Assembly (NCBI GenBank): GCA_965112155.1
Contig: OZ218101.1
Source: Podarcis liolepis
Lineage: Eukaryota
Length of the DNA: 64,000 nt
Strand: one strand, 5' to 3'
Positions within the stretch are counted from its first letter, which is position 1; each line of letters starts with the position of its first letter. Positions 440 through 64,000 of this stretch are shown here, one piece after another. The notes below the pieces were generated by a model, which had not been told where the DNA came from, made no database searches, and saw only the letters and a program-made list of their open reading frames with translations. A program made the position numbers and the translations under genes.

Positions 440-1337
440 GGCAAGAGCAATTTCTTCCAAAATATTTTTGTATATATCATATACTCATGATGCAAATGAA
501 ATAGCACTTGCTGGTGATTGGTTTCAAAATCTTTCAGACGTTCATGAGGAAACATGAGTTATATCATTTATTCTTATAATCTTTTTTTTTGGGGGGGGGA
601 TGTTTTGCTGGGTAAAATAGCAATATTTATGTAGTGATGTGATTCTCCTTTTCCAAAGCCCCAAACTCTGACTTCAGACCAGCTATAGAGAATGGCTCCT
701 TAAACTATAAGAGACTAATATGCTTGTATTTTGGCTCATAAATGTGATACTTGCTATCATCATCTTAGATACAAATAAACAAAGAAGATTTACTCTTAAA
801 GATGAGAATCATTTCTTCTAAACTGTAGAGGTTACATTTACCTGCTATTGAAAATGAATGTGGAATTATCTAACATGGAGAACCTGGTACATTAGTGGAA
901 GTAATATTCCATTTCTCACATCCTGTTCATTCATGTAATGGGTACAATGGAGATATAATGGCCTCTAATAGCTTGAAGGGCTTTTCATGGTTTAATTATC
1001 TTGATGATATCATGCTATGGATTTCAGCATAAGTATTATAAAACGACATGGGAGATTATGACTTTGTCTATTAGGAGGTGCATTACATACCACACCATGC
1101 TTTTTGGCGTATAGTTTTGAGTCTATTTTTGCCTCTTCAATATAATATACAAGTAAATAGTTGGAACCAAGGCAGACAAAACCTAAAGTTCCAACTCTTA
1201 GCTGCTGCCCTTGGGCTTTTAGTAGCAGGTCCCTGGTGTTTCTGTGAGGGAACAATTCATTTCTTTATGCTACTGTTGCAAGGTTCCAATCCTTGCCAAA
1301 GGTGCCACACCAACAATCTTTCCTGTGTGGCAGATCT

Positions 1338-2063
1338 TTGCGTGTTCAGACCCAGAAACCTCCCCCTTAAATAAATTCACACAAGACTCAAATTTTGGTT
1401 TTGGTTTTTGGCAGAATTTAGGCCACAACTTTATTGATTACAGAAAAGTGAGTGGTTGCATAGGCTCTGGTTCAACTAGCTCCCTGCCATGCAGGTAGCG
1501 CTGACCCAGGGTTCCAGCATAGGTCAGCCAAGGGTGAACACCCGGATAAGCGGAAAGCTGGGAACGGGCTAACTCCGCCACCCAAATGGCCCCCTGGACT
1601 CAGGCACGGGCACAACCCCCTCTCAGCGGTTGACCAAACCATTGAGTCCCTGGATTCCTTTAACGGAATATCCTTCACATAGAGATGGTGAGAGCGTTCT
1701 CCCATCCCTATCACCTGAACCAGAGCCTGTCTGCAACCTTACAAGTTGTGACGATTTGCTACGCGGCAGGCGAAACCCAAATGGCACCAGCCAATCAGCC
1801 AAGTGGGGAAAATTCCGGCCGTGCCCCTGTCCCAACGACAGATGACACATGGCGGCATAGCAAGTTCAAGTGCAAAGCCCTAAAAGTAGGGAGAGGTGGG
1901 CGGGTGTTCCGAATGCATGCGCCGAAAGAGGAAGCTCTGGGTCAGACTGTGTCCCATTGGCCAGATTGCACCCAGCTTTGAGGGACCTACCAATCAGGTG
2001 TTGTGACTGACCAATCGTACCCACCCACAACACAGGGTGTCGGTTGTCCAGGTCTCACTGCAA
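1338..2063 (-). mobile_element. LTR-like repeat unit, copy 1 (solo LTR or DIRS/Ngaro-type terminal repeat; class unresolved)
   Basis: Shares ends (TTGCGTGTT...TGCAA) and identical internal islands (21 nt at 1649-1669, 34 nt at 1731-1764) with 60735-61438. AATAAA on minus strand at 1430-1435, CCAAT motifs near the other end, no clean TSD. Confidence 0.7.
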
Positions 2064-2560
2064 TACTTGCCCTCTTTAAGGAATGACCCAATTTGCCAAG
2101 TAAAGTGCTTTACACAGGGCTTAAAAAATATGGTTGGGAGGAGTTTGAAGCCGTAAGCAATAGGCTCTGTTCCATTGTAGTGCTGCTCCTTTGTGAGCTG
2201 CTTCCCGTCATGTAAGCGAAGCAAGCTGCTCATGAAGAAGCAATGACTGGCACCCTCCAGCTAGTGAGTGGTAAGATCATATCCTGTGCAGCACCTGCAA
2301 CCCACAGGATCGATGAGCTGATTCTGTGGGGTAGAGCATCAGGCAGGACGGAGAACCATGGCATTGGGTCTCTCTGCTCCTGGAAGCCATAGCCGCCATT
2401 CAGGTAGGTCTCAAACCATTCACATGGTTTTTCCACCCTGGTTCATTCAACCCAACTGTCTATGCCTGACTAGTCTTTCTGACTATGCCCAGTTTGGCTT
2501 AGTACTTGGCTGAATGTGGTGCACACCCTAATAAAAATACTAATGTCATAGGTTTGTAGG

Positions 2561-3132
2561 TGTTAGAATGTAATTAAGGCTCAGGCGTTAAAGCTGCGTA
2601 TCAAGCCCTCAAGAGTTGGAATATAATCAGATCCATGTGTGCATTTGATCTGCTTCTAATCCTTTAATTAGCATGTGTGAAAGCTAGGCAATTTAGCTAG
2701 GCAAACTTCCTAAATTGTGTATTGGACACCTCACTAATCCTTTGGAATCTACATGTGTTAGAAACTAATTAACTTAAATAATTTCCTTTTAGGTGTTAGC
2801 TTGGGATAATGGGTCATTAACACAACAAGAGGATCAAAGGGAATGGGGCCTCTGCCAGTGTTTCAAAAGGCCAGGGATTAGGCTAGAGAGAGAAAAGAAA
2901 CTGGGATGTAACTTGGAACAAGGCAAGGTTCAGGACATAGACACTCTCTTGGAATGCTGATGCTCTGAACCCCTCCACAGCAGGCTCAGGTTGTATAGAT
3001 GTGTAAATAAGCCATACATCATAAAGACACCTCAGTCTCCAATGTGCCACATTTCCAAAAGGAAACACAGACCTGGGGTAAAATGTACCTGGAATCTTGC
3101 ACTGCTCTGCATATTAGGGATGGCATGTAACA
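2561..3132 (+). mobile_element. Solo LTR, same family as the 51220-52300 host LTR
   Basis: TGTTA...TAACA ends; 2945-3130 aligns by eye with 51497-51590 plus 52179-52300; no clean TSD. Confidence 0.6.
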
Positions 3133-7139: not shown

Positions 7140-7502
7140 CCATGAATCTGATGAAGCGAACTTTGGTTTACGAAAGCTTATACAGTGGTACCTCGGGTTA
7201 AAGTACTTAATTCGTTCCGGAGGTCCGTACTTAACCTGAAACTGTTCTTAACCTGAAGCACCACTTTAGCTAATGGGCCTCCTACTGCTGCCGTGCCGCG
7301 GGAGCCCAATTTCTGTTTTCATCCTGAAGCAAAGTTCTTAACTTGAAGCACTATTTCTGGGTTAGCGGAGTCTGTAACCTGAAGCATATGTAACCTGAAG
7401 CGTATGTAACCTGAGGTACCACTGTACTATGATAAATTAGTTAGCCTTTAAATTGCTATGAGACTCCTGCTTTTTTCTTTTTCTTTGCTGAAACAGATTA
7501 AC
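7140..7502 (+). mobile_element. Penelope-like element terminal fragment with hammerhead-like core, split by a MITE
   Basis: CTGATGAAG...ACGAAAGCTTA[MITE]...TAAATTAGTTAGCCTTTAAATTGC; related copy on the minus strand at 14548-14655. Confidence 0.65.
7183..7424 (+). mobile_element. Tigger/pogo-like MITE
   Basis: TIR CAGTGGTACCTC.GGTTA / TAACC.GAGGTACCACTG with TA on both sides; same family as 32366-32574 and 36677-36907. Confidence 0.9.
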
Positions 7503-32365: not shown

Positions 32366-32574
32366 CAGTAGTACCTCAGGTTACAGACGCTGCAGGTTAC
32401 AGACTCAACTAACCCAGAAATAGCACCTCGGATTAAGAATTTTGCTTCAGGATGAGAACAGAAATTGTGCTCTGGTGGCGTGGCGGCAGCAGGAGGCCCC
32501 ATTAGCTAAAGTGGTACCTCAGGTTAAGAACAGACCTCCAGAATGAATTAAATTTTTAACCCGAGGTACCACTG
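32366..32574 (-). mobile_element. Tigger/pogo-like MITE
   Basis: CAGTAGTACCTCAGGTTA...TAACCCGAGGTACCACTG with TA flanks; reverse orientation relative to 7183-7424. Confidence 0.85.
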
Positions 32575-33062
32575 TATAACCTATTCCACGCTAGCTAGGA
32601 GCAATGTAATTCAGGTCTCTCCTCATGTAAAAAAATTAAGAATTTTGAGTTACAGAAGGCAATTTTAATGTGTTTTGCTTAGCCTTTCTTGGAAATATGA
32701 TGCGGAGCAGTAGATATGCTCCTTTTAGTAGTGCTTTGGCTTCATCTGTGGTCAGTTTATACCAGTAGCTGCTGGTGAGGCAATTGTAGTGGTGGGTTCT
32801 GCTTCTCTCCTGGCTTCCCAGCACATCAGGCCACTGGTGCTTAGCAAGGGGGACAGGGGCAAGGCAGCAGGAGTTTTGTGGTTGCTCCGGCAGGGCCAAT
32901 CCAATACACCTGACACAGTGTCCCCACTGTGCATGCACAATTCTAAGCACCTGCTGCCTTGCCACCCCTTCACTCTTGGTAAGCACCATTGACCCACTGT
33001 GTTGGGAAGCTGGAGGAGCAACAAAGCCCCATCCACACTGTCTCACTAGCCACTACTGGCTT

Positions 33063-36477: not shown

Positions 36478-36643
36478 CAGTAGCGTAGCATGGGGGGGTG
36501 CAGGGGGGGGGCCGGCCGCACCGGGCGCAACATCTGGGGGTTAGGGGGTGCAAATCCACGGGTTAGGGGGTGCAAATCCACAGGTTAGGGGGCACAAATT
36601 ACTTGCCTTGCCCCGGGTGCTGACAACCCACGCTACGCCACTG
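36478..36643. mobile_element. hAT MITE, young
   Basis: TIR CAGTAGCGTAGC / GCTACGCCACTG; perfect 8-bp TSD TGATTACG (36470-36477 / 36644-36651). Confidence 0.92.
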
Positions 36644-36676
36644 TGATTACGGCCCCAATTATCTTTCTAGGTTGTG

Positions 36677-36907
36677 CAGTGGTACCTCTGGTTATGAACT
36701 TCATTTGTTCCGGAGGTCCGTTCTTAACCTGAAAATGTTCTTAACCTGAGGTACCTTTTTAGCTAATGGGGCCTCCTGCTGCCACCACGCAATTTCTGTT
36801 TTCATCCTGAGGTAAAGTTCTTAACCCGAGGTACTACTTCCGGGTTAGCGGAGTCTGTAACCCGAAGTGTTTGTAATCCAAGGTGTTTGTAACCCGAGGT
36901 ACCACTG
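36677..36907 (+). mobile_element. Tigger/pogo-like MITE
   Basis: CAGTGGTACCTC...GAGGTACCACTG; right TA intact, left TG. Confidence 0.85.
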
Positions 36908-37469
36908 TATTTTTAAAAATGGAACCTTCATTATTATAAAGTGGGGTAGAGAAACTGTGGCCCAACAGATATTGCTGAACTGCAACTTCCATCAGCCCCA
37001 GCAAGCATGGTCAATGGCAATAATAATGATGATGGGATGCAAGGATGATAGGAGTTGTAGTTTAGGAACATTTGGAACATTACACACCTCTGTTATAAAG
37101 GATGCAGCTATCCACTGAGCCTTTCACCTGCCTATGCAGGACCAACCCACCTATGAGGCAAGGCAAGGTGACTGTCTCAGATGGCAGGATCCACAGGGGC
37201 AGCAAGAATCAAAATGTCTTTGTATATATGGGACTTTTTCATGTGCTCCAGCAGTCTCTCTTTTTCCTGCTTCCAGTGTGTGTCCAGAAGATGCATAAAT
37301 TTAGCTGGCACGTAGGTCAGAATCTAGTCATCTTTTTTAGTGTTAGAGCATCATTTTATAAATCTATAAAACACACACACTCAGTGGTTTCCTAAGCAAT
37401 GCAATAAATGGTTTGTGGTCTGATTCCAAAGCCAGTTTCTGGCCATAAATGTATTGATTAAATCATTCA

Positions 37470-37760: not shown

Positions 37761-38201
37761 GAAAATACATTTTCCATAATAACCCACCCTTACTCTGAAA
37801 TCTACCTTTAACTAGTCATGTGCCAATATTGCCATTTAGCCGGTATTCTTATAGCCATGTCCCTGAAAGTAAGCCCTGCTGAGTAGATAGTTGTCCCAAT
37901 TTTCCAGGGACAGTCCTGGAATTACGAAAGCCACCCTGGCTTTTGATTTGATCCCAGAATGTCGCTATTTCCCCTGCCAGTGCTGCCACCATTGAGCTTG
38001 GGGTGGAGGATGAGGTATCACTTGTACCAAGTGGGGGCAGCGGTGAGGGAGCATCCCATGGCCTCTGTATGGCCTCTCCATGGCTGCTGCTGCCAGCTTC
38101 CCCCCTTGGGCAGCTCATAGCTGTTGCTGGACAGTAGAGGGGAGGCTTCCCACATCAAGGCCCAGCTCCACATGACACCAGCTCTGAGAGGCAGGCAGAA
38201 G

Positions 38202-38725
38202 CAGCGGCGTAGCGTGGGTTGTCAGCACCCGGGGCAAGGCAAGTAATTTGCGCCCCCTAACCTGGGGCAAGGTAAGTAATTTGCGCCCCCTAACCCGGGG
38301 CAAGGCAAGTAATTTGCGCCCCCTAACCTGGGGCAAGGCAAGTAATTTGCGCCCCCTAACCCGGGGCAAGGCAAGTAATTTGCGCCCCCTAAACCCTAAC
38401 CTGCCGCCGCTGCCAGCTTCTTCTTGCTGCTGCCTGGACTGGTCTGGTGTGGTTCTCTCCCGCGATCAGCGCTGCGCTGGGCAGCCGCTGCACTGTCCCT
38501 CCCCCAGCCAGTCCCTCTCTCTCTCTCCGCACCGCACGCCTGGCACCCACCCCCTCCACAGTGGGCGGCGACCCAGCGGCTCGGATCGGATTCGCACAGC
38601 CAGCACTGCAGTGAGAGAGAGTGAGTGAGCCAGGTAGGGGCAGAGAGCTGCGAGTGCGAGCGCGCCCCCCGATGTTGCGCCCGGTGCGGCCGGCCCCCTC
38701 CCGCACCCCCCATGCTACGCCACTG
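38202..38725. mobile_element. hAT MITE, same family as 36478-36643, opposite orientation
   Basis: TIR CAGCGGCGTAGC / GCTACGCCACTG; perfect 8-bp TSD GGCAGAAG (38194-38201 / 38726-38733). Confidence 0.92.
38228..38392. repeat. 33-bp minisatellite x5 inside the hAT MITE
   Basis: CC(C/T)GGGGCAAGG(C/T)AAGTAATTTGCGCCCCCTAA repeated five times. Confidence 0.95.
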
Positions 38726-51219: not shown

Positions 51220-52300
51220 TGTTGTGGGGCTTGGGGAATTCATTGTTGAAGCAGACAGGCCAGTTTGTTGGTAATGGCCCCGAGTGCAGGTGGTTAGTAT
51301 AAGAAAGTAAGTTGCTTTGTGCTGGGTGGCAAATGGGTGGGACCCCCTCCCTCAACTGGCTGGTAGAGGAAAGAACAATAGCCAGAATGGAGTGTGAGAG
51401 AGAGCTGAGATAGAAGCAGGCAGAAACCAGAGATTGAGAGTCATGCTTGATTTCTGCTTGAATCTAAGGCTATAGCTATGGGAGAAGCAAGACCGCCTTG
51501 GGATGTTAATGCTGTGAGCCCCTCCATCATAAGCTCATGTCGTCTATATGTGTAAATAAACCACGTATCATAAGGACATCACAGTCTCCATGTGGAGTGT
51601 GAAACACAGAGCAGTCAAATACAACATTCCTAGAGTGGACATGTTTAGACATGAAGAGGGATGTTTGTCCAACCAGTAGATAAGCTTCCTCTACATGTGA
51701 CCAGATGTGGACATGACCTCACCTGTGCAGGTAACAAAAGCACAGGGCTGGCCACCACATCTCTCTCTTCTCCATTTTGCTTTCATCGAAGAAGCATCAG
51801 CCTGTGATGCTCTCTTGGCTTCTAGAGAAGAGAGGACAAAGAAACAATCTCCTTATGGGATAGATTCCAGGTGTATATATTTTGTAACTTATGTATGCCT
51901 TCTGGGATCCATCTGTGAACAGAATGTGTGAGTAAACTATTTTATACTTTTATACAAGACTGTGTCATGTCTATTCTTTTTAAGAGGGAATATAAGGGGA
52001 ATTATCAGGAAACTTATTTTAGAGGCTTATGCAAGTCTGGCAAACCTACCAGCTGTGTAAGTTTAAAAAGGGGGGAATGTTACTCTGCTAAATCATAGAA
52101 CTTGTTAACGCAAGTTGGAAAGGATATTATTAAACAATATATCCTCTCCTGCCTCCCTGAACATTCCCACACTCCACAGTCTCTCATTCCAAGGAAAATG
52201 AACCCTGGGTAAGCATCTGGAACTCCTGGAATCTCACACAATTCAGAGATGGGGATCCCTGGAATTTTACACCACTCGGATATTTGGGTGGCATGCAACA
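51220..52300 (+). mobile_element. Solo LTR interrupted by a second LTR-like element
   Basis: TGTTG...CAACA ends; the halves on either side of 51591-52178 join to match 2945-3132. Confidence 0.65.
51591..52178 (+). mobile_element. Nested LTR-like element (588 bp)
   Basis: Perfect 11-bp terminal inverted repeat TGTGGAGTGTG / CACACTCCACA with TG...CA ends. Confidence 0.65.
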
Positions 52301-60734: not shown

Positions 60735-61438
60735 TTGCGTGTTGAGGTCCCCAAGCCACCCCTAAAATAACTTACAACACACACATAATTTTTGTTTAAG
60801 GTTTTTGGCATAATTTTAGCCACAACTTTATTGAAATACATAAATGTGAGTGGTTGCTTAGGCAGTGGTTAAGGCTATCTCCCCCCCCCCCCCGCCTGGG
60901 GACAGAACTGACTTCCAGACACCAACAAAAGTCAGTAAGGGAAAACAATATTGGGGAGAAATGGAGCTGAGCTACAGGCCCTCACCTCTCCCTGCATGCT
61001 CTCCAGGACTTGCTGGCCCTAGCCCCATTCCAGGGATTCGGACGAAAAATTGGCAAGCGCCTGGATTCCTTTAACGGAATTCCCTTTCCGCAACAACCTT
61101 GGAGGGGCAGGCCCAGCCCATCCTAACCCCTCCTCCAACCAATTGATAACCAATGCCTAACTGCAACCTTACAAGTTGTGACGATTTGCTACGCAGTAGG
61201 CAAAAACCAAATGGCCCCAGCCAATCGGCCAGATGGACAAAATTCCTACCAGGCCCCTGCCCCAATGGCAGACGACCCCATGACAGGCAAAGGAAGGTCA
61301 ACGCAAAACCCATAAAATTAGGGCATGTGGGCGGGTGATCTGATGCACGCAGTAAAGAGAAAGCACCAAGCAGCGTGCACAGGATTTAAAACAACTAATC
61401 CCACCCACCAAATTGCAACATCGAATTTACCCCTGCAA
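60735..61438 (-). mobile_element. LTR-like repeat unit, copy 2 (same family as 1338-2063)
   Basis: Same ends and conserved islands as copy 1; AATAAA (minus) at 60827-60832; TTTAAA TATA-like at 61385-61390. Confidence 0.7.
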
Positions 61439-64000
61439 CCCGTTTGGGGCTTTAAATGACTTTAAAAGTTGCTCAGTGCAAGGGATCAGTGGAAAAGCTG
61501 AAGGTTACATGCTGTATGGTTCAGTGCACCATGAGGAGCTTGCATAGTTAGAGAGCTATTTAGGATCTCCTACTGACATTTCACATTGGATCTATTTAGG
61601 ATATCCTACAAACAGTTCAACTTGATGAATCACTGACAGGAGTCACCTTCATCTTCTCATCTTGTGCCAGTAGAATCTGTTTTAGTGGAAGGGATGTTTT
61701 GGTATGGGATAATCTTGGTTTCAGTTTGTATAATTCTGTATGCAGAAACCATCCTGCATTGCATTAATCAGTCTTTAGATTGAGGTGCTGAACATTTTTT
61801 TTATCTGGAGGCACATTTGGAAGTCTGAGGAACTGTCATGGGCACCACAAAATACTCACCACAGAAGAAAAACTGGCAATCATTAGACATTCCTGCAAAC
61901 AATGGTCAAACTTACCCCCCCCCCCAATGAAAATGCAGGGAAAAAACAAGAAAACATCACCCCGCAATAGGCAGACCTCAACAACTAAAACACATATACA
62001 CACCTCTTTTAAAAATAATAAGAGGAGCAAGGGGGCTTGACAGGCACCATGGAATTTCTCTTAGGAATATGTAAAGATCTACACAAAAATCTCTCATACC
62101 AGCTTTGAAGGTGGCCGATTTATTATATTAATGATTGCAGAGCCATGGTCCTGTTGTGTTTAGACAGAGCAAATGATTCTGTACTTACTGTCATTATTTG
62201 GTCCACATAAACATTAGCAAGGTGAATTTAAACTCAGGAGACCTTTGGTATTTCAATGCTGGCCCTGTCTTGATTAGAAATTGCTAGTTGCAAGGTGTTT
62301 TTGTAGAGCATACAAACATTCATGATTAAAGCTTCATTTTCATCAGCAGTGTCACGGTTTCTAAATGTTTTAAATAAAATACCAGGGGGTTATGCTGAAT
62401 ACTAAAATGAATGGCTTTTTTTTTTGTCTGCTTCGCCTGTTCCAAGTTTTCATTCTAAAATCACCAAGGTATTACACTTTAAGAAATGGAGCAGGGCAAT
62501 TTTTTTCCTTACTCAAAGCTAGAAGCTCTGCTATCGAAGAGGATTGAAACTTTGCGATAAAGAAAAAGAAACTTCAGGAAATGTTATTCCATTAGACCTA
62601 AAATGACAAGGTGTGGTTGGCCATCACATACTCTTCATAGTTGGCAACTCCTCATAGGGTTGGGGGCATCTGTCAATTTTGGTTTCAATTTCTTATTCTC
62701 TCCCCCCCCCCAAATCTAAATTCAGTTCCCCACATTTCCCCTAATGTAATGCAGCTCTGTTTGTTATTTCTCTAAGATGCATGCACTTTTATGTTCTCTG
62801 TCCCCTGATATACACATTCAGGGGTTGGAAAACTGAATTGCAAAATTCTGAAAAGTGTGAAGTTTGAAGGACAGCTGCATTCAATGCATATATTGTTTTG
62901 GGAAATGCAAATTAGGTACCAAACTCAATTTCTCGCCCACCCCTCCTTCGCAAAGCCTTCTTCAAATACTATTTTTGCTAGAGAAACTTTGCCAATAGTT
63001 TCCTCATAAGTTGTCTTAGGGAACCTAAGGCATGTGGCAGAGGTTTCCCGCCCCCCGTTCAGAACACCCAAGCCTGATCAAGAGTGTAAAGCACAAAACC
63101 TCACTTTCTGTATTTTAGAATCAAGCTGGTTAAAAAAGAGAGGCTTCATCACTCTTGCTGTAGGTTTCCTGTCCTGTTGAACCAATGTGATGAGTAACAC
63201 TGATTTACAATTTTAGTATCTCATATCTCAAGTGTCAGGATTCAGAGAAAAAGACCATTCCATCTGACTAGGATGTAAAAATTGAGAGGTTTATTCATGC
63301 ACTAATAAAAATGTTTTAATGCTGATTTTTGTATCTTTCATCTTTGAACCAATAATATATGACATTTTCACATGTCCTTTCAAGTTCCTGGGCTGACACT
63401 TCCAGATGCGATGTGCCACATAGATTTGCTTCATTCTCATTGCAAAGATCAGAGCTGACTTAGTGTGATAGGTTGCAATGGTTAAGAATCAGATGTGATA
63501 TTTCATTATATCAATCGTCAGCATACTGAATTTGATGAGACAGTTATCCTTACATATCACAAGTTATTGCTGCCTTTCCTTAGAAGTGTTCCATGCTTAT
63601 TAGAGGAACTTCAGGACCAACAGCTCCCTCCTCACATGGAATTACACAACTATTTTCTGAGCAGATCCCAAAATGTGTTATTTTCTTTATTTAAAAAAAT
63701 GTAATTGCAGGATCATATTATGTTGCATATTTTTCCAAAGCTAGCTGAATTTGGGAAGTTTTGATTAACTTTCCTTTCTTTAATATAAATCAGGTGTGTG
63801 GGATATTTGGCGCTCCAGATGGTGCCCTACATCTCCCATCAGCCCTAGTAAACATGGCCGATGGCCTGGGAAGTGTAGTTGAGCATCATCTGGAGGGCAA
63901 AAGGTTTCCCACATGTGATGTAAATGATAGTCACATTTTTCACTTGTCACTTGACTAAATGTCTAATAGCTTATTAAAATGAATGAAAAGGTTAAAGTCT

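Follow-up and report, generated by a model that had tools for sequence, protein, structure and literature searches.

ENEs are U-rich internal loops set between short helices and next to G-C pairs; by forming U-A-U triples with poly(A) they slow RNA decay, and about 200 of them were attributed to transposable elements by Tycowski et al. in 2016 (both as given in excerpts of PMC7583470 and PMC13541005). In the retrotransposon Evade, an ENE in the spacer increases RNA stability and insertions, and it needs the G-C pairs that flank its U loop (sections of PMC12501189). MALAT1-like triplex loci are known in anole lizards (excerpts of PMC10869381). Ngaro elements of the hydrolase-bearing type, of which DIRS-53_XT from Xenopus is an example, are arranged A1-ORFs-B1-A2-B2 and encode a reverse transcriptase (RT), a tyrosine recombinase and an SGNH-like ORF (excerpts of PMC9210276).

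Here we describe an ENE-like hairpin within a stretch of 64,000 nucleotides (the window), in a remnant of a Ngaro-type element. Like the single-domain ENE of KSHV PAN RNA, it is a stem-loop with a two-sided U-rich loop, adjoining G-C pairs and a poly(A) signal downstream, and the commonest Ngaro form (5 U and 4 to 6 U) is PAN-like as well; unlike that ENE, the Ngaro loop includes an additional A-R / Y-G segment, only 3 U are present in some subfamilies, and the hairpin is a predicted arm of a junction, with long-range helices that are modeled as docking the poly(A) site (for PAN, excerpts of PMC7583470 and PMC13541005). As in Evade/Copia93 and the transposable-element ENEs of Tycowski et al., the hairpin occupies a noncoding retrotransposon spacer that would lie close to the RNA's 3′ end, where protection from deadenylation has been proposed (sections of PMC12501189), but it is single-domain, belongs to a tyrosine-recombinase element and lies between two identical poly(A) signals. 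With MALAT1/NEAT1 and the anole loci it shares a U-rich, triplex-type element in a lizard-type genome (excerpts of PMC10869381); unlike the MALAT1/NEAT1 type, it matches none of the Rfam models for those families (window 1200-2600) and is followed by a conventional AAUAAA. The host family resembles DIRS-53_XT in its split direct repeats, RT, tyrosine recombinase and SGNH-like ORF and differs from it in a conserved, structured spacer between A2 and B2; the words "spacer" and "solo" do not occur in PMC9210276. In the literature covered, we found no description of an ENE or triple helix in Ngaro, DIRS-order or tyrosine-recombinase elements; the tables of the 2016 survey lay outside its scope and might list one.

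The host is a solo remnant of a Ngaro-type retrotransposon

Read directly, the minus strand at 1820-1765 is GGCCGG-AAUUUUC-CCCA...UGGG-UUUCG-CCUGCC, and AATAAA follows 330 nt 3′ of this hairpin on the same strand (Table 1). An earlier note on this DNA had given the same letters and had placed the hexamer about 330 nt downstream, and both statements were confirmed. It had also called the host LTR-like, which we revise: copy 1 is what remains, as a solo A-spacer-B unit, of a split-direct-repeat element, a tyrosine-recombinase retrotransposon of Ngaro type (DIRS order). Two genome searches returned 2,646 and 2,907 first-look candidates, and 40 of each were scored. The 30 closest copies had common limits and no similarity beyond them. 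A solo LTR of an LTR retrotransposon or ERV was rejected on 25 copies inspected by eye, which end in CACGCAA-like words, start after a short A run and show neither TG..CA termini nor a target duplication.

Searching the genome for tyrosine recombinases gave 29 matches, and the 3′ regions of these loci match the window copies. The arrangement A1-ORFs-B1-A2-spacer-B2, with repeat pairs 98 to 100% identical, was seen in 17 of the 29 (10-kb stretches); one other locus was a tandem unit, and the rest were truncated or rearranged, several of them stopping after B1. The two window copies, which are 70% identical to each other, correspond to the A2-spacer-B2 part of full elements and contain no ORFs. 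With a junction pattern for the copy-1 subfamily giving 0 matches and no full-length parent identified, the layout is taken from related families.

All three relative elements that were scanned against Pfam contained RVT_1 and Phage_integrase. Split repeats are common to PAT elements too, and a hydrolase ORF favors Ngaro over PAT (excerpts of PMC9210276). Judged by protein similarity, an SGNH-like hydrolase ORF follows the recombinase in the relatives: the ORF of locus L084 is 26% identical (E 1e-19) to that of the metagenome locus L157, which matches Lipase_GDSL_2 above the cut-off. The corresponding frame of L087 had no SGNH hydrolase match when compared with Pfam directly, and neither RNase H nor methyltransferase was matched in Pfam at E ≤0.01. 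L157 came from a cross-species search that yielded seven viral-contig and two metagenome loci; it is Ngaro-like, and its contig ends ahead of any second repeat. RT matches were weak in L158 and absent from the seven viral-contig loci. At L157:4900-4960, this distant Ngaro-like element keeps a TTTGGCGG-hairpin-GGTTGGC signal after the SGNH ORF.

TABLE 1 Features of the two window copies and predicted helices of copy 1
Feature	Positions	Strand	Remarks
Solo A-spacer-B remnant, copy 1	1338..2093	-	~760 bp; no TG..CA ends; no target-site duplication seen
Repeat A, promoter-like (A1 and A2 in full elements)	1905..2093	-	Inner edge placed by eye from full elements
Single-copy spacer C	1736..1904	-	Present between A2 and B2 only
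Repeat B (B1 and B2 in full elements)	1338..1735	-	Terminates in CACGCAA
P0 closing helix, 5′ strand	1855..1863	-	Partner 1764-1756; 91.5% of cells paired, no two-sided change (24 copies)
Junction arm 1, variable hairpin adjoining the U-loop arm	1821..1848	-	94.7% paired (24 copies)
ENE-like arm	1765..1820	-	Covarying lower stem, A-R-U(3-5) / U(3-6)-Y-G internal loop, upper stem, variable apical hairpin
Near-invariant box GUCACAACU	1744..1752	-	Complementary to the 9 nt after the poly(A) hexamer
P2 and P3 long-range helices, 5′ strands	1716..1738	-	P2 1738-1731, P3 1728-1716; at the start of B
P3 and P2, 3′ strands	1454..1474	-	P3 1474-1462, P2 1460-1454
AAUAAA and box partner AGUUGUGGC	1422..1435	-	Hexamer 1435-1430; near-invariant partner 1430-1422
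Copy 2, other subfamily	60735..61440	-	Hairpin about 61250-61195; AATAAA 60832-60827; homology to relatives stops near 61440

Several further observations concern the family and the window. A nearly full-length Ngaro copy, L096 (G000:C4:58610916-58620915), lies about 93 kb from the window. Coding copies that terminate after a single B (L078, L086, L090, L091, L101 and many of L189-L228) fit an expected B1/B2 recombination that deletes A2 and the spacer. L099, L085 and L081 are inserted in satellite arrays of ~185 bp, and L099 has a tandem B-A-spacer-B-A-spacer-B end carrying two motifs. In all families repeat A opens with a short hairpin, which adjoins the B-A junction (window 2093-2065, minus strand) and is possibly part of the recombinase site. 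The window also holds a two-copy repeat assigned to no family (2948-3046 and 51497-51594, 78% identical), a 33-bp tandem array (38194-38395) that recurs in inverted orientation ~1.6 kb away (36578-36643), and a further interspersed repeat in three diverged copies (7205-7437, 32373-32583 and 36668-36920).

The hairpin is confined to the spacer between A2 and B2

In 15 full elements, the sequence past B1 matches A1 for just its first 215 to 270 nt, and the next 163 to 182 nt are single-copy and bear the motif. The hairpin is found neither after A1 nor before B1. A covariance model gave 20 strong matches in 19 of the 29 elements, one per A2-spacer-B2 unit, and matched both window copies too; no significant second site appeared in the 29 elements, with two weak matches elsewhere (E 0.26 and 0.78). 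Because many of the searched sequences had built the model, the informative part of this result is the absence of a second site. An additional sample consisted of 40 of 118 further loci, picked by their recombinase protein alone. Both B repeats were retained in 17, all of which had the motif before B2; another 20 were without a repeat and 3 had unrelated repeats. A TATA-like word lies 53 to 59 nt before the end of A in 15/15 elements (the motif list was drawn up after viewing them), and the spacer is therefore probably downstream of the start site.

The lower stem and U tracts are conserved across the family

Folded alone, the copy-1 hairpin does not stand out: its minimum free energy (MFE) of -26.6 nearly equals the average of 200 shuffles (-26.56; z -0.01), 97 of which fold as well, the internal loop is partly closed in the MFE fold by possible pairing of A-A on its 5′ side with U-U on its 3′ side, and 52 of 1598 80-nt tiles of the window fit a loose ENE descriptor. 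Rfam gave only weak, unrelated matches in window 1200-2600, and its MALAT1/mascRNA-type models had no match at E ≤10 in that interval or in 6 other copies, in a search run without a positive control. The significance of the hairpin thus derives from family conservation and not from single-copy fold energy.

Comparison of copies indicates that the hairpin is a real RNA fold, conserved across the family. Two alignments made from sequence only, of 22 and 24 copies from 13 clusters, were scored; all covariation comes from one genome. The lower stem was paired in 95.5 to 99.3% of cells across both alignments (99.3% in the 24 copies), with two-sided change at 4 of its 6 pairs in the larger one, including U-A, A-U and C-G at one position, and RNAalifold found it unaided. 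The counted upper-stem pairs were conserved and showed no covariation; the shortest family has a different upper stem, of 5 bp. Both U tracts were kept across the 24 diverged copies, and the pairs that adjoin the loop were G-C in 23/24 copies each, the GG/CC lying two nucleotides away from the U runs. The whole-structure covariation score exceeded 500 of 500 shuffles and every slid control, a comparison in which related sequences can surpass the shuffles without structure; pair types mark separate clades on the tree, so that the actual events amount to a handful. The earlier note had named conserved U tracts and stem covariation among the tests of its proposal, which survives both: the tracts are kept and the lower stem covaries.

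That note had also suspected decay of copy 1, citing a C-U mismatch in the lower stem and short U tracts of 4 and 3. The mismatch is private to copy 1, since all 29 other closest copies have A at that position, and is the only copy-specific decay. Tracts of 4 and 3 U are usual in the window's subfamily (other subfamilies have mostly 5 U and 4 to 6 U) and therefore do not represent decay.

A further set of loci was drawn from the downstream box, whose pattern had 6,761 matches in the genome and 10 in the control. Fifty box loci were taken blind to upstream sequence (the first 30 listed and 20 with unusual box spacers). The ENE descriptor was found upstream of the box in 36 of these 50 loci (3 in a shifted register), compared to 16 of 500 shuffles (~3% in controls), and the most frequent loops were 5 U and 4 to 6 U. 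A low rate of motif change within families was set aside because the loci had been selected by similarity to that region.

The hairpin is predicted to be one arm of a three-way junction

In folding models, the hairpin forms one of the arms of a three-way junction (Table 1). Positions 1900-1400 of copy 1, comprising the spacer and B, fold at z -4.8, and 0 of 100 shuffles were as good. The predicted fold consists of P0, arm 1 and the U-loop arm, followed by nested helices; B is folded out, and the box pairs with the 9 to 10 nt after AAUAAA. Pairing of UAGCA near the poly(A) site, a candidate from folds that started at the hairpin, was discarded when P0 replaced it once upstream sequence was added. 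Two-sided change was seen at 3 pairs of P3; P2, which indels misalign, was omitted from this count. The box helix was 99.1% paired, with 7 of 9 pairs invariant and no covariation, and had a probability of >0.7 in 14 of 24 folds. It is broken without compensation in one subfamily, and RNAalifold gives the GUC of the box a competing local partner. Given this invariance, the uncompensated break and the competing partner, docking at the poly(A) site is predicted but not proven.

B1 and B2 are predicted by the same modeling to fold differently. In L076-L103, two TGGCGG-like words just before B1 flank a short hairpin, and an alternative pairing of ~12 bp links this sequence to the stretch preceding AAUAAA; the two strands of this alternative helix change together from one family to the next.

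An ENE-like function is favored among several readings

The comparisons establish the hairpin's position and strand, its U tracts, the G-C pairs that flank them, and covariation in the lower stem and P3. A U-rich internal loop is present on both strands between two helices, as in the ENE layout, with G-C pairs beside it (the A-minor stem), and the motif is on the coding strand ahead of AAUAAA. The loop has an extra A-R / Y-G segment between the stem and the U tracts, which counts against an ENE, and in the window's subfamily and the L082 family, with 3 to 4 U per side, at most 3 triples could form. On balance, and with limited confidence, we favor the reading that the hairpin acts in an ENE-like manner, gripping the poly(A) tail of transcripts that terminate in B2. 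The earlier note's proposal of an ENE therefore stands as regards the preserved U tracts, the covarying lower stem and the location, which is 5′ of a poly(A) signal in the coding orientation, and is amended in that the hairpin is predicted to be only part of a larger junction.

As we envisage this ENE-like function, U-A-U triples would form between the U-rich loop and the poly(A) tail of the same RNA, slowing deadenylation. The modeled nested helices would fold out ~300 nt of B and let the sequence after AAUAAA pair with the box just past the junction, and this pairing would bring the beginning of the tail close to the foot of the hairpin. RNAs ending at B1 would lack the element and those ending at B2 would carry it; the latter would comprise the read-through genomic template and possibly a short RNA driven by A2. 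By analogy with the model for DIRS-1 (excerpts of PMC7192593), B2-ending RNAs alone would hold the B-A junction needed to rebuild the ends. If only these RNAs carry the element, it would selectively stabilize the RNA destined for reverse transcription. Three raw RNA runs and one contig set compared with L084, for which the species match to the window is uncertain, gave 124, 74 and 122 reads and 38 contigs, mostly partial, from both strands and with no pile-ups at starts or ends.

The restriction of the element to RNAs with both repeats is also what would be needed of a packaging or priming signal. The junction, U loop and box might accordingly be a cis signal for proteins that the element itself encodes, serving either Gag in packaging or RT in loading and priming; after cleavage, the box, held by pairing just past AAUAAA, might even prime synthesis itself. 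We consider this the main rival, possible but less likely. The box and its partner are 96 to 99% conserved in sequence, beyond what pairing requires, and no primer is known for DIRS-order elements (excerpts of PMC7192593). The U runs, however, vary from 3 to 8 on both sides while staying U between fixed G-C pairs, which is the layout of an ENE and not of a fixed protein site.

It is improbable, in our estimate, that the fold chiefly sets the choice of poly(A) site, with B1 read through, B2 used as the end and the U loop serving as a flexible hinge. The differing predicted folds of B1 and B2 are its starting point: upstream of B1 a different helix of ~12 bp forms with the region before AAUAAA, with changes between families that match by eye. 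Predicted access to the hexamer nevertheless showed no consistent gain at B2, the hexamer of B1 being more open in 11 of 15 elements, and the two-sided U loop is left unexplained. Site choice and the ENE-like function are compatible.

DIRS-1 makes a linear single-stranded cDNA (excerpts of PMC7192593), and Watson-Crick covariation would suit either strand, which allows a structure acting on the cDNA intermediate rather than on RNA. We rate this as very improbable: among 139 non-independent units, the lower-stem cells held 45 G-U and 3 A-C on the sense strand, and these G-U pairs would be mismatches in cDNA. The excess favors the sense RNA strand, although CpG decay could inflate G-U.

Finally, a DNA-level promoter segment with a reverse CCAAT box and an NF-κB-like site, the hairpin being incidental, is scarcely credible and was rejected: ATTGG occurs in the apical part of 17/24 copies, but the full ATTGGYY is present in 6/24 and the NF-κB-like site in 4/24, the spacer lies downstream of A's TATA-like box and is absent after A1, and DNA sites are not expected to show compensatory changes.

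Solo copies exceed full elements in a young family

In the young L082 family (L105-L124; 97 to 99% identical), solos made up 16 of the 20 best loci. An exact 24-mer from the spacer of L082 occurred 467 times, compared to 10 for one just before B1 (~47 to 1), with the caveat that sister subfamilies may share the spacer word and not the pre-B1 word. One rather doubtful explanation is that A2, and with it every solo, drives a polyadenylated noncoding RNA of ~500 nt, PAN-like in having its own tail folded into the ENE, which the element proteins would copy and insert in trans. Such mobilization would account for the excess of the spacer word in L082; as A1/A2 recombination also yields solos, and as the spacer word may be shared with sister subfamilies, direct mobilization of a short RNA is no more than possible. 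Pairing of the box behind AAUAAA might, in addition, provide the primer for reverse transcription in the DIRS order.

Implications

If the ENE-like function holds, ENEs would extend to a new order of retrotransposons and to a lizard-like tetrapod genome, in a design absent from the literature examined, in which long-range helices bring the poly(A) tail to the triplex. An ENE placed between two identical poly(A) signals would protect the replication template only. The 170-nt region is a conserved and mutable target for asking how split-direct-repeat elements prime reverse transcription and select genomic RNA, and the U tracts of thousands of natural variants, 3 to 6 nt long, would provide material for tests of triplex length.
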